Part shown: piece after piece, positions 44,220-49,738 of the stretch | Position numbering within the stretch: position 1 is the first letter of the stretch | Layout of the letters: every line of letters begins with the position of its first letter | Source of the DNA: a phage | Length of the DNA: 64,000 nt | Sequence record: OZ335960.1 | Strand: one strand, 5' to 3' | The notes under the pieces: model-generated | Databases searched by the model: none | The model's input: the letters and a program-made list of their open reading frames with translations, nothing else | Told to the model about the DNA's origin: nothing | Translations under genes and position numbers: made by a program

Positions 44220-46484
44220 TCATAATTTACAGGATGAACAATCTTCAGCTTTTGGAGTTTCTATTTCATAATCATCAGTACCAGAACCGTCACGGGTATT
44301 ATGATAATAGAAATTTTTTCCGCCAAAATACCAAAAATACAAAAGGTCATCAATCATTATTGACATTGGAACCTTTCCTTTTGGAAAAATCTGCGGGTCA
44401 TAATATGTATTCGCTGAAGCTGATTGACACACCCATTTCAGCATAATAGCTACTTGCGTAAGATAAGGTTTATTGCCTTTCTTAGCTAATTTCCATGTAT
44501 AATCATAGAGGTCTATGTTGTGCTCAATATTGGGCACGACTTGATTAAAGGAGCCCTCTTTTGATTCTTTAACAGAGACTGGTCCACGTGGAGGCTCGAT
44601 ACCGTTTGTACTGTTAGAAACTTGGGAAGATGACTCACATGGCATAAGTGCTGATAATGTGCTATTACGGATGCCAAAGAGCTTAAGGTCTTCCCGCAGC
44701 GACGACCAGTCACAAACGTATTTTGGAGCTGCGATTTGGTCAATCTTTTTATTGTACCAGTCGATAGGTAATTCGCCTCGAGACCAACGAGTGTCTGAAT
44801 AATATTCGCAAGGTCCTTTTTCTTTGGCGAGCTTAATGGATGCTTTAATGAGTCCATACTGTAATCTCTCAAATAGTTCATGTGTTAAATCGTTAGCATC
44901 TTCATAAGAAGCAAAATTACTTGCTAGCCAAGCTGCATAGTTAGTAACACCTACGCCAAGGTTTCGACGTTTTTTAGCTTTTTCTGCTTCAGGAACTGGA
45001 TATCCTTGGTAATCCAAAAGATTATCAAGAGCACGAACTTGGACTTCTGCCAATTCATTAATTTTATCTTGGTCTTGCCAATCGAAGTTATCTAACACAA
45101 ATGCAGATAACGTACACAATCCAATTTCAGCATCAGGACTATTCACATCATTTGTTGGAATAGCAATTTCACAACACAAGTTGCTCTGACGAATAGGTGC
45201 CTTTTCACGAATAAATGGCGTATAGTTATTCGTATTATCAATGAACTGCACATAAATCCTTGCTGTTCCTGAGCGTTCAGTCATGAGCAATTCAAACAGT
45301 TCACGGGCTTTAATACGCTTTTTACGAATATTAGGGTCTTTTTCTGCAGCTTCGTATAATTCACGGAAACGGTCTTGGTCTTTAAAATAAGAATAATAAA
45401 GTTCGCCACCCATTTCATGCGGACTGAACAAAGTAATGTAATCATTCTTTCCGAATCGTTCCATCATTAGGTCATTCAGTTGAACGCCATAATCCATATG
45501 ACGGATACGGTTTTCTTCTACACCTTTGTTATTTTTCAAAACGAGAAGATTTTCAACTTCCAAATGCCAAATAGGATAATAAGCAGTAGCAGCGCCGCCA
45601 CGAATTCCACCCTGTGAACATGATTTAACTGCAGTCTGAAAATGTTTCCAAAAAGGAATAACACCAGTATGACGCACTTCACCCATTCCAATCTTAGAAC
45701 CTTCGGCACGAATCATACCAACGTTAATACCAATTCCAGCGCGTTTGGAGATATATTCAACAATTGAAGCAGAAGCCTTATTGATAGACTTTAATGAATC
45801 ACCTGCCTCAATAACAACGCATGAACTAAACTGCCGAGTTGGAGTACGGCAACCAGCCATAATAGGGGTTGGCAGTGAAATCTGTCGAGTAGATACTGCT
45901 TCATAAAAACGAATAACATGTTTTAATCTATCAACAGGTTCATCTTGATGCAATGCCATTCCAATAGTCATAAATGCAAACTGTGGAGTTTCATAAATTT
46001 GACCAGTGGTTTTATCTTTAACTAGATATTTTTCTTTTAATTGCATCGCCCCGGAATAAGTAAATTCCATATCCCGCTCGTGCTTAATTTTTGATTCTAA
46101 AAATGTAATTTCTTCTGCTGAATATTTTGACAACAATTCAGGGTCGTATTTACCTTCATTTACACAGTAAGAAATATGGTCAATAAATGAACGGGGCTCA
46201 TACTGCCCGTAAACATGCTTACGAAGAGCGAACATTAAACACCGTGCAGCTACATATTGATAATCAGGCTCTTCAACTGAAATAGAATTCGCAGCAGCCT
46301 TAATGACAATAGTCTGAATGTCATCAGTTGTCATTCCATCACGGAGATATGATTTAATATTTTCATATAATTCATAAGGATCTACAGATGTTCCTTCAGC
46401 TGCCCAAGATAAAACTTTAATAATTTTTTGCGGGTCAAAGCTCTGAGAAACACCACTACTTTTGATAACATTAATTAATTGCAT
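44220..46484 (-). CDS. nrdA: Ribonucleotide reductase large subunit
   Basis: 754-aa ORF (T4 NrdA length); C-terminal CSSCKL-type tail. Confidence 0.95.
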   Translation of the reverse strand: MQLINVIKSSGVSQSFDPQKIIKVLSWAAEGTSVDPYELYENIKSYLRDGMTTDDIQTIVIKAAANSISVEEPDYQYVAARCLMFALRKHVYGQYEPRSFIDHISYCVNEGKYDPELLSKYSAEEITFLESKIKHERDMEFTYSGAMQLKEKYLVKDKTTGQIYETPQFAFMTIGMALHQDEPVDRLKHVIRFYEAVSTRQISLPTPIMAGCRTPTRQFSSCVVIEAGDSLKSINKASASIVEYISKRAGIGINVGMIRAEGSKIGMGEVRHTGVIPFWKHFQTAVKSCSQGGIRGGAATAYYPIWHLEVENLLVLKNNKGVEENRIRHMDYGVQLNDLMMERFGKNDYITLFSPHEMGGELYYSYFKDQDRFRELYEAAEKDPNIRKKRIKARELFELLMTERSGTARIYVQFIDNTNNYTPFIREKAPIRQSNLCCEIAIPTNDVNSPDAEIGLCTLSAFVLDNFDWQDQDKINELAEVQVRALDNLLDYQGYPVPEAEKAKKRRNLGVGVTNYAAWLASNFASYEDANDLTHELFERLQYGLIKASIKLAKEKGPCEYYSDTRWSRGELPIDWYNKKIDQIAAPKYVCDWSSLREDLKLFGIRNSTLSALMPCESSSQVSNSTNGIEPPRGPVSVKESKEGSFNQVVPNIEHNIDLYDYTWKLAKKGNKPYLTQVAIMLKWVCQSASANTYYDPQIFPKGKVPMSIMIDDLLYFWYFGGKNFYYHNTRDGSGTDDYEIETPKAEDCSSCKL

Positions 46485-46801
46485 AAGTCCTCAACTTGAA
46501 AATCGTCTTTAAACAATCGGTTAACTATATGAGCTATTATATCACCATGACACGGCTTTGGTTTACATGTGCATCCTAGCCTCATTCCACGTAAAGGCTC
46601 TAAATGTGCTTTAGTTATTTCTCCGGATTTAATTCGACGTATAAAATCTTTTTTGAATAATTCAATGGCAGCCTCCCGGCTGCCAGCATCTTTACCGACG
46701 TAATTTCCCCAAAATGTACCACGGTGAATATTAACATCAAAGTCGGATTTATATTTATTCACTACCTGGCATAGACGGCCCGCGCGGTGATAATTCGTCA
46801 T
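46475..46801 (-). CDS. Hypothetical protein (nrdA.1 position)
   Basis: 108-aa ORF with CxxC...CHGD motifs. Confidence 0.6.
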
Positions 46802-47030
46802 ATTGTTTTTCCGTTAAAACAGTAATATCATAGTAACAATCAGAAGAAGTTTTAACTGTGGAAATTTTATTATCAAAATACTCACGAGTCATTTTATGAG
46901 TATAATACTTTTTACCATAAATGATAATAGGTTGTTCTGGTCCTGGAACTTCTAACTCGCTTGGATTAGGAAGTGTAAAAAGAACGATACCAGAAGTATC
47001 CTTAAATCGTAAAATCATATATCCTCTCAA
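46755..47030 (-). CDS. Hypothetical protein (nrdA.2 position)
   Basis: 91-aa ORF. Confidence 0.55.
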
Positions 47031-47041
47031 TTAAATTAAAA

Positions 47042-47902
47042 TTACACCGCCATCTTTCCTTTCAAAACACCGTGGGACTGATAATCTTTGAGAACGAAAT
47101 CCCGTGCTGTCATATATTCAGTTAACCAATACATTTGAGTTTCAGTATCGCATTGACTGAATCCATTAGGCCAATTAATACTGAGTTTGCATAGATCCAT
47201 AGGAGTTCTATTTAATATCTCTTTGCATTGCTCAATATGGTTAGAATAAATGTGTGTATTACCACCAGAGAATACCAAATCGCCCGGAACTAGTTCACAC
47301 ATGTCAGCAACAATATGTAAAAGAGCAGCATAACTCGCGATGTTAAATGGAAGACCGAGGAAAACATCTACCGAACGTTGATACCATTGGAGGTCAAGGT
47401 ATCCGTTACGCACATTAAACTGATAGAACATATGACAAGGTGGTAATGCCATCTGCTTGAGTTCAGCTGGATTCCATGCCGACACAATTTGACGTCTATC
47501 ATTGGGAAATGTTTTAATACGATTAACAACTTCTACAATTTGATCTACACCACCAAAATCACGCCATTGTTTTCCGTAAATTGGACCAAGTTCACCGCTA
47601 TGATAACCTAGGTCTTTGGCCTGGTTTTCGTAGTTTTCATCCCAAATTGTTTTTCCTGCAATTAAAGATCCATGAGTACGTTGACGTAAATCATTTACGT
47701 TAGTACTTCCTGATAAGAACCACAATAACTCAGAAATACATGCATTCCAGGCGAGCTTCTTAGTTGTTACTGCAGGAAAACCTTTAGTTAAATCCCAGCG
47801 TAATTTAGTACCGAACAAAGCAATTGTTCCTGTGCCTGTTCGGTCATCGGTTTCATAGCCGTTTTCAAAAATGTCTTTAATTAAATCTTGGTATTGTTTC
47901 AT
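47042..47902 (-). CDS. td: Thymidylate synthase, uninterrupted (no group I intron)
   Basis: 286-aa continuous ORF (T4 Td is 286 aa after splicing); catalytic region ALPPCHMFYQFNV intact. Confidence 0.95.
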   Translation of the reverse strand: MKQYQDLIKDIFENGYETDDRTGTGTIALFGTKLRWDLTKGFPAVTTKKLAWNACISELLWFLSGSTNVNDLRQRTHGSLIAGKTIWDENYENQAKDLGYHSGELGPIYGKQWRDFGGVDQIVEVVNRIKTFPNDRRQIVSAWNPAELKQMALPPCHMFYQFNVRNGYLDLQWYQRSVDVFLGLPFNIASYAALLHIVADMCELVPGDLVFSGGNTHIYSNHIEQCKEILNRTPMDLCKLSINWPNGFSQCDTETQMYWLTEYMTARDFVLKDYQSHGVLKGKMAV

Positions 47903-47946
47903 TTAGTACCTTATATAAATTATAATACATTTTATGAAGCTAATAA

Positions 47947-48306
47947 TCAATACGGTTTAGCATCAAATTTTCTTTCAATTTCAGGCGTAAAATATAATTC
48001 TTTACCACGCTTGGAAAAGCGACCAATAATATGATAATTATTCTCATCAAACGTGATATTGCCGATATCCATAGCTTTCAACCAAATATCGATATTTCTG
48101 TCAAGCTTTATATCAAAATTCCAATACGGAGAATTATTACCAAAAATACTACAAGCGGATTCAGTGAAACAACTGCTATAAATTTTGTCTTTAGGAACTA
48201 CTAATTGATAGACTCCTTTAATAAACTGAGGACCTTGCCATTTTGGTTGTTTCGCGTCTTTTTCTAATAGAATAGGATAATAATTAAAATTCATATTTTC
48301 CGCCAC
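47947..48306 (-). CDS. Hypothetical protein inserted between frd and td
   Basis: 119 codons as tracked (GTG start) or 115 from ATG at 48294; no recognisable motif; occupies a ~410-bp gap where I recall T4 frd and td overlapping. Confidence 0.55.
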   Translation of the reverse strand: MAENMNFNYYPILLEKDAKQPKWQGPQFIKGVYQLVVPKDKIYSSCFTESACSIFGNNSPYWNFDIKLDRNIDIWLKAMDIGNITFDENNYHIIGRFSKRGKELYFTPEIERKFDAKPY

Positions 48307-48314
48307 GTGTTATT

Positions 48315-49141
<827 letters not shown>

Positions 49142-49149
49142 TTTATCTC

Positions 49150-49485
49150 CTAATATAAAGGATCGGGAACATATCCACTAGCTTTAATCATTTTAATTAA
49201 TGTTAACATTCCTTTATTAACTGCTAGTGAAATTTCATCAAAAACTTCATCACTAAAAAGTTCTAACACGCCCTTCTGAACTTTTAGTTTACAGCCAACA
49301 ATTTCGTCATCGCCTATAGTAAATTCGTTTCCGCCAATTCCACCGAAAAACTTAATTACGCCAGTTAACTGTCTTCCACGAGAATATGGGTCGTGCGATA
49401 AAGTAATATGAGTCACCCCAGGTACAGTTTTAAATTGGCAGCGGATGTTTACTTGAGCAATTCCAGTTACATGAATGTCAGACAT
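49150..49485 (-). CDS. Hypothetical protein (frd-32 cluster)
   Basis: 111-aa ORF. Confidence 0.55.
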   Translation of the reverse strand: MSDIHVTGIAQVNIRCQFKTVPGVTHITLSHDPYSRGRQLTGVIKFFGGIGGNEFTIGDDEIVGCKLKVQKGVLELFSDEVFDEISLAVNKGMLTLIKMIKASGYVPDPLY

Positions 49486-49495
49486 AATATTTTCC

Positions 49496-49738
49496 TCAAA
49501 CAGTCTTTTTCACAATTTTCCAATCAGCTTTAAACTGTTCAACATCAGAATGGTAAATCCAGAATCCTGCGCTTTCTCCATCCTCGTAAAGAGGGCATCC
49601 ATCACATTCATCTTCCCATCCCATGTCACGCAAAAGATGTTCAGCTTTTTCAACAAGTTCAGAATCTTTACCGATGATATTAAAATACCATTTACCTCTA
49701 ACTTCTGAATCTTTAATACTCTGGCGTTGTAATCTCAT
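49496..49738 (-). CDS. Hypothetical protein (frd-32 cluster)
   Basis: 80-aa ORF with AAGGAG SD. Confidence 0.55.
   Translation of the reverse strand: MRLQRQSIKDSEVRGKWYFNIIGKDSELVEKAEHLLRDMGWEDECDGCPLYEDGESAGFWIYHSDVEQFKADWKIVKKTV

Follow-up and report, generated by a model that had tools for sequence, protein, structure and literature searches.

A small, conserved gene in the frd-td slot of T4-like phages and its absence from T4

In phage T4 (NC_000866) the genes frd (dihydrofolate reductase, DHFR) and td (thymidylate synthase) overlap by the four nucleotides ATGA (frd 145109..145690, td end 145112). In the phage sequence OZ335960.1, of which a stretch of 64,000 nucleotides (hereafter the window) was analysed, the two genes lie on the minus strand and are separated by a gap of 412 bp that is occupied by a single open reading frame (ORF), herewith designated ORF A. 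The initial annotation of this stretch, made from the letters alone, stated the T4 overlap correctly, and its observation of an extra ORF of 115-119 codons in a gap of about 410 bp, absent from T4, was confirmed together with the tight packing between the neighbours (the ATG of ORF A follows the frd stop after 20 nt, and the td ATG follows the stop of ORF A after 44 nt). The locus raises the questions of whether ORF A is a gene, whether it was gained in this phage or lost in T4, and what its product may do. We describe here that ORF A is a real gene, constrained in sequence and fixed in its slot, to which T4 makes the exception, and we hold this evolutionary description with high confidence.

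The coding signal by codon usage, on which the initial annotation had made its reading depend, is present: by codon log-odds ORF A scores +0.255 bits/codon in its own frame, next to +0.251 for td and +0.331 for frd, and its score falls below zero in all five other frames. When ORF A was compared with its counterparts in six other Tequatroviruses, the ratio of non-synonymous to synonymous substitution rates (dN/dS) was 0.01-0.06, the differences between phages being 17-29 synonymous versus 1-11 non-synonymous, with 19 synonymous and one non-synonymous in the comparison with T6. ORF A is thus a genuine gene under strong purifying selection, with normal codon usage. A chance open frame within a non-coding spacer might be suggested by the lack of annotation of ORF A in the T2 record of 2003 (AY310907) and in LC348380, but this reading has a negligible probability and was rejected on the positive codon score confined to one frame, the excess of synonymous differences, the conserved motifs kept in homologues at 26-66% identity, and the confident AlphaFold model of the protein.

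ORF A could be read from GTG at 48306 (119 codons) or from ATG at 48294 (115 codons). The ATG is the conserved start, used in the GenBank annotations and aligned with the N-termini of the homologues, and the upstream GTG is probably unused. In phage NHEP36 the ATG of A overlaps the frd stop, leaving no upstream extension, and in RB3 and F2 the stretch 48295..48306 is read as the 3' end of frd. In the 204-aa Frd variants (RB3-like; P0057), an AA insertion before TGA extends frd by 11 codons into the start of the ORF (window 48295-48321).

The 412-bp segment was matched over its full length, at 80% nucleotide identity or higher, in 363 phage records, including T2, T6, RB3, RB9, RB18, RB27, RB32 and RB33. 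By tblastn, homologues of ORF A were detected in 607 records from at least seven Tevenvirinae genera, the surplus of 244 records, all below 60% identity, being from phages of Klebsiella, Enterobacter, Salmonella, Citrobacter, Serratia, Erwinia and Kosakonia. Phage GEP001 encodes a protein of 100% identity (XQP09329.1, 'hypothetical protein'), and T2 one of 99% identity. More distant homologues, at 26-63% identity, fill the slot between frd and td in Kanagawavirus, Jiaodavirus, Roskildevirus, Gelderlandvirus, Winklervirus and unclassified T4-like phages, the identity dropping roughly in step with that of frd. The match to the PHROG 1928 profile (E = 7.1e-36) covers residues 8-115 and profile positions 2-125 of 126. 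When 1.84 billion representative proteins were searched exhaustively with HMMER, only 41 clusters (at 50% identity) were obtained, all of 37-139 aa, and pattern scanning detected no family member in 185,579 genomes of bacteria and archaea, indicating that the family is restricted to T4-like phages and tied to the frd-td slot. The gene was found at no other site, and its presence or absence varies within Tequatrovirus, where carrying ORF A is the majority state and T4 is the exception.

The initial annotation had regarded ORF A as a lineage-specific insertion, and this view has to be given up, since 363 records including T2 and T6 carry it and the same slot is used across at least seven genera; comparison of the junction among T4-like genomes gave T4 as the outlier. 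The expectation that T4 would hold no homologue at this position was borne out to the letter, but in spirit it fails, as T2, T6 and most relatives carry ORF A there. The existence of ORF A is already known, in that it has been deposited hundreds of times as 'hypothetical protein', and our literature searches found no paper on it.

For analysis of the slot, loci were sampled from Kanagawavirus, Jiaodavirus, Roskildevirus, Gelderlandvirus, Winklervirus, an unclassified Klebsiella phage, a metagenomic T4-like contig and 13 IMG/VR genomes, and every ORF between frd and td was classified using hidden Markov models (HMMs) built in this analysis. Each of the 29 loci with a homologue that were examined, and the window as well, had the PHROG 1928 family in this slot. 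Three kinds of occupant were distinguished: A; B, which is paralogous to A, carries an insert at the N-terminus, is matched by the A-family HMM at 1e-6 to 1e-18 and, as A does, matches PHROG 1928; and C, an unrelated 68-aa protein of PHROG 9550 without Pfam match. Most Tequatroviruses and Jiaodavirus have the order frd-A-td; Kanagawavirus, Gelderlandvirus and Winklervirus have frd-A-B-td, and Cronus has frd-B-A-td. In L014 and kv_tblp5 the order is frd-A-B-C-td, with C placed last of the three. The Tequatroviruses IME537 and BYEP01 have frd-C-td, in which C is the sole occupant with its ATG inside the ATGA of the frd stop. In several genera the start of A overlaps the frd stop, and the stop of A or B overlaps the td start. 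Direct overlap of frd and td was observed for T4 and for close relatives numbering a few tens; this share is approximate, being estimated from 6 of 60 evenly spaced rows of the match list, and a query with the 50-nt T4 junction failed to separate the junction classes, since in phages with the ORF each half of the query can seed on a copy of a direct repeat.

This direct repeat, with the consensus TAAATGAAA(Y)AA(Y)AC, is present in two copies in the window (Table 1) and in a single copy where frd meets td in T4. Read on the coding strand, the window has CAGTATATAAATGAAATAACACGTGG at the frd end and GGTACTAAATGAAACAATACCAAG at the td start; the T4 junction contains CAGTATATAAATGAAACAATACCAAG and is 416 bp shorter (spans of 200 versus 616). 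Two copies in the window, one in T4 and a difference of 416 bp are as expected from recombination between the copies. The frd end GTATATAAATGA serves as a constant coupling junction, its internal ATG being the start of td in T4, of A in NHEP36 and of C in IME537. Loss of ORF A in the T4 lineage is most likely, and more parsimonious than gain, because all outgroup genera carry A and because the divergent Tequatrovirus NHEP36 carries A overlapping the frd stop (ATGA), like the frd/A junctions of other genera. With the indel bounded by a repeat of 13/15 identity and exactly one copy left in T4, we take the T4 state as most likely derived: a 416-bp deletion between the TAAATGAAA(Y)AA(Y)AC copies would have fused the frd stop to the td start, giving the ATGA overlap.

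ORF A encodes a soluble protein, small and basic, with a single beta-rich domain that includes one helix; the order of its secondary-structure elements is predicted to be OB-like. AlphaFold2 gave a pLDDT of 76.5 with an alignment of 12 sequences, and 92.7 with a pTM of 0.85 when 46 sequences were used; the predicted model consists of strands 6-12, 27-34, 38-40, 48-50 and 62-64, helix 68-76, and strands 80-82, 86-96 and 99-104. The OB-fold nucleic-acid-binding domains considered for comparison are HIN, the RecO N-domain, the OB domain of the ExoVII large subunit, the OBs of Cdc13 and Teb1, and S1. Within the family the isoelectric point (pI) is mostly 8-9.5, and the alignment shows W19, G91, K95 and G97 to be invariant and Q16, G27, Y29, F93 and F102 to be nearly invariant, Q16 and W19 being located in the first loop and G91-R92-F93-x-K95-x-G97 forming a hairpin. 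If the domain is OB-like, these conserved residues would be on the usual ligand-binding face. Neither ORF A nor any of the 46 family members gave a significant match in searches of Pfam, NCBIfam, PDB sequences or PADLOC, the last being a library of defence, not anti-defence, proteins; no close relative of ORF A was found among solved structures, no catalytic motif was recognised, and the fold-search matches included no nuclease.

Taking these results together, the explanation that we favour, at slightly better than even confidence, is that ORF A is a vertically inherited accessory gene, lost from T4, that codes for a non-enzymatic binding module. The gene would belong to the frd-td nucleotide-metabolism transcription unit of the Tevenvirinae as a representative of the phage-only family PHROG 1928, whose paralogous subtypes A and B appear to have been maintained, single or in tandem, between frd and td. 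Its product would be made together with DHFR and thymidylate synthase, probably with translational coupling to frd in several genera. The ligand would most likely be a nucleic acid (single-stranded DNA or mRNA) or a partner protein, bound through a conserved face composed of D13, Q16 and W19 of the first loop and the G91-R92-F93-x-K95-x-G97 hairpin; for this OB-like binder mechanism our confidence is only tentative. The gene may be dispensable under laboratory conditions, as T4 and its near relatives do without it.

Several observations weigh against this explanation. The G+C content of ORF A (30.7%) is below that of frd (36.8%), td (38.6%) and the whole window (36.3%). The direction of the indel is deduced from the distribution of the gene, and the 24-nt leader after the frd stop begins with ATGAAATAACAC, resembling a decayed td start, which would agree with A having been re-inserted into a junction of the T4 type; such an event could have taken place in the window's own lineage. 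Fixed positions are common in the core regions of T4-like phages, so that the slot alone is no proof of a link with DHFR or thymidylate synthase. Nucleic-acid binding, in turn, is a suggestion drawn from the conserved W19, Y29, R92, F93 and K95 and the basic pI.

Among other functions to be considered, ORF A might be a dedicated partner of DHFR and/or thymidylate synthase (small subunit, assembly factor or regulator) within the T4-type complex synthesising deoxyribonucleoside triphosphates (dNTPs), without a nucleic-acid role. We consider this unlikely, even though the family always adjoins frd and the overlaps of the A start with the frd stop and of the A or B stop with the td start suggest coupled translation in several genera. 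A public 316-aa protein (P0054; WP_146639004.1, 'dihydrofolate reductase'), in which Frd is joined in frame to ORF A via the linker NEITRGGN, would be a Rosetta-stone hint if real, but the fusion needs two changes in the length of A-runs and may be an assembly error, and tblastn with the junction peptide gave two-piece matches only, with no in-frame fusion in any of the best 30 of the 363 matching phage records. In addition, the DHFR and thymidylate synthase of T4 work without ORF A. A stronger form, in which the A/B family has an unrecognised fold and is a stoichiometrically co-translated, dedicated partner of the two enzymes, for instance one that links the replication fork or mRNA with thymidylate synthesis, is more doubtful still.

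A role of ORF A in host takeover or anti-defence, as a small early protein that neutralises a host factor of some hosts and hence was dispensable and lost in T4, would agree with the polymorphism of the Tequatrovirus slot (A, C or nothing), the small size of the protein without enzymatic motif and the G+C content below that of the flanks; many small early genes of T4 act in host takeover. This role too appears improbable, as the gene evolves very slowly for its dN/dS to be that of a typical arms-race gene, the slot has long been fixed across genera with different hosts, and the location is in a metabolic operon, not in one of the variable accessory regions; PADLOC, with the coverage given above, was also negative. 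Far less probable is that ORF A is mobile, either as a homing endonuclease of the free-standing type or otherwise, and entered the frd/td junction recently. As with the seg and mob homing endonucleases of T-even phages, ORF A lies between conserved genes and is variably present in close relatives, a short direct repeat lies on either side of the indel, and the gene is annotated as a putative homing endonuclease in the BASEL phages WilhelmHis and FelixPlatter. Unlike seg and mob, however, ORF A lacks nuclease motifs, in agreement with the initial annotation, which noticed no GIY-YIG, HNH or LAGLIDADG signature (no Pfam match was obtained): profiles of these and other nucleases match none of the 46 family members, and neither the PDB sequence search nor the fold search pointed to a nuclease. 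The characterised free-standing seg and mob endonucleases of T4 are much larger than 115 aa, while ORF A keeps to one slot in seven genera and is subject to strong purifying selection, with divergence that tracks that of frd. The homing-endonuclease reading was therefore rejected, there being no nuclease motif or fold and no sporadic or mobile distribution relative to the flanking genes, and the suggestion of the initial annotation that ORF A might be mobile or anti-defence is left unsupported by the strong purifying selection and the slot fixed across genera.

The annotation of ORF A in public records is inconsistent (AY310907.2, LC348380.1, MZ501113.1, MN580668.1): the gene is not annotated in two T2 records, is called 'putative homing endonuclease' in BASEL phages, and is 'putative glucose-1-phosphate adenylyltransferase' in pSe_SNUABM_01. 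No profile or fold match backs these labels. Some GenBank labels make ORF A a DHFR paralogue, which was rejected in the absence of a DHFR_1 match; the 316-aa fusion merges Frd and ORF A into one cluster at 90% identity, and this probably explains the labels 'dihydrofolate reductase' and 'reductase' on ORF A. The labels 'putative homing endonuclease', 'dihydrofolate reductase' and 'glucose-1-phosphate adenylyltransferase' are hereby corrected for ORF A.

The features of the region are listed in Table 1. No terminator on the coding strand was predicted between frd, ORF A and td, so that co-transcription, as proposed by the initial annotation, is plausible; the region gave no Rfam match. The spacer between ORF A and td contains a sigma-70-like site (47950->47922), which is a consensus match only. 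A motif reminiscent of a T4 MotA-box middle promoter can be seen there by eye as well (AGCTTCA, with TAATTT about 12 nt downstream), likewise a consensus match only. In RB3, T2 and T6 the 44-nt spacer has the same sequence; F2 and NHEP36 have a spacer of 13-15 nt in its place.

Table 1. Coordinates of ORF A, its repeats and its neighbours in the window, and of C in four sampled loci
Feature	Position	Strand	Description
ORF A	47947..48294	-	115 aa, 13.7 kDa, pI 8.5; PHROG 1928 member; stop TGA 47947-47949
Upstream GTG start, 119-aa version	48295..48306	-	probably unused; homologues and GenBank annotations begin at ATG
Direct-repeat copy 1	48307..48321	-	TAAATGAAATAACAC, across frd stop; 13/15 identical to copy 2, first 9 nt exact
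Direct-repeat copy 2	47891..47905	-	TAAATGAAACAATAC, across td start; 416 nt from copy 1
ORF A-td spacer, 44 nt	47903..47946	-	td Shine-Dalgarno AAGG and sigma-70-like match TTGATT-17-TATTAT
frd	48315..48896	-	dihydrofolate reductase, 193 aa, upstream neighbour; Pfam DHFR_1 3.1e-19; aligns to T4 frd; stop TGA 48315-48317
td	47042..47902	-	thymidylate synthase, 286 aa, intronless, downstream neighbour; Pfam Thymidylat_synt 3e-95, full length
frd.1	49496..49738	-	DUF5417
111-aa protein	49150..49485	-	DUF7247; absent from T4
81-aa ORF	48896..49141	-	no Pfam match; absent from T4
nrdA.2	46755..47030	-	DUF5496; downstream of td as in T4
nrdA.1	46475..46801	-	DUF4326; downstream of td as in T4
C ORF (68 aa)	L009:3100-3306; L011:1600-1806; L014:6670-6879; L007:3148-3354

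The td gene of the window is intronless, and that of T4, RB3, T6 and Melville carries a group I intron with I-TevI. The window has ORF A only, RB3 and T6 have both ORF A and the intron, and T4 has the intron only; the presence of ORF A is thus independent of the td intron. The distance between the frd/td junction and the intron site is about 550 bp. On the other side of frd, two ORFs that are absent from T4 lie between frd.1 and frd (window 48896-49485, minus strand), where T4 has only a gap of 71 nt, and T4 looks reduced on both flanks of frd. Downstream of td, nrdA.2 and nrdA.1 overlap by 47 nt, and nrdA.1 and nrdA by 10 nt. Mosaic patches with 52-66% nucleotide identity to some or all of the compared Tequatroviruses were observed at 48551-48650 (in frd; low identity in only three of the six) and 47051-47350 (in the 3' half of td). 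ORF A and both of its junctions are 81-100% identical in nucleotide sequence among these phages, or 92-100% without the divergent F2, and ORF A is better conserved than parts of frd and td. With low-identity patches inside frd and td and conservation of ORF A with its junctions, the recombination breakpoints would be in the enzyme genes, not at the ORF.

ORF A is a full member of PHROG 1928, a family that lacks functional annotation as well as a Pfam or NCBIfam model and a solved structure. It resembles the small ORFs of the T4 gene 32-frd-td-nrdA cluster, i.e., frd.1 (DUF5417), frd.2 (PF03197), frd.3 (PF05798), nrdA.1 (DUF4326) and nrdA.2 (DUF5496), in being small, on the same strand, within the nucleotide-metabolism region and conserved across T4-like phages. 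It differs from them in having no sequence relation and, being absent from T4, neither a T4 gene name nor T4 genetics. As T2 and T6 carry ORF A, standard T-even genetics is applicable, and a conserved, T4-like-specific and confidently foldable protein without solved relative makes a reasonable low-cost target for work on the dNTP complex or on small phage proteins.

To specialists these findings will be no surprise; the gain is a corrected view of the junction, the A/B/C structure of the slot, a repeat-bounded indel and a confident model. If the product should prove to be a partner of DHFR and thymidylate synthase with a new fold, the deletion in T4 would explain why 60 years of T4 genetics missed the gene. 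The usual arrangement in the Tevenvirinae is one to three small genes (A, B and C) in the frd-td slot, and the textbook overlap of frd and td in T4 is a minority and probably derived state.
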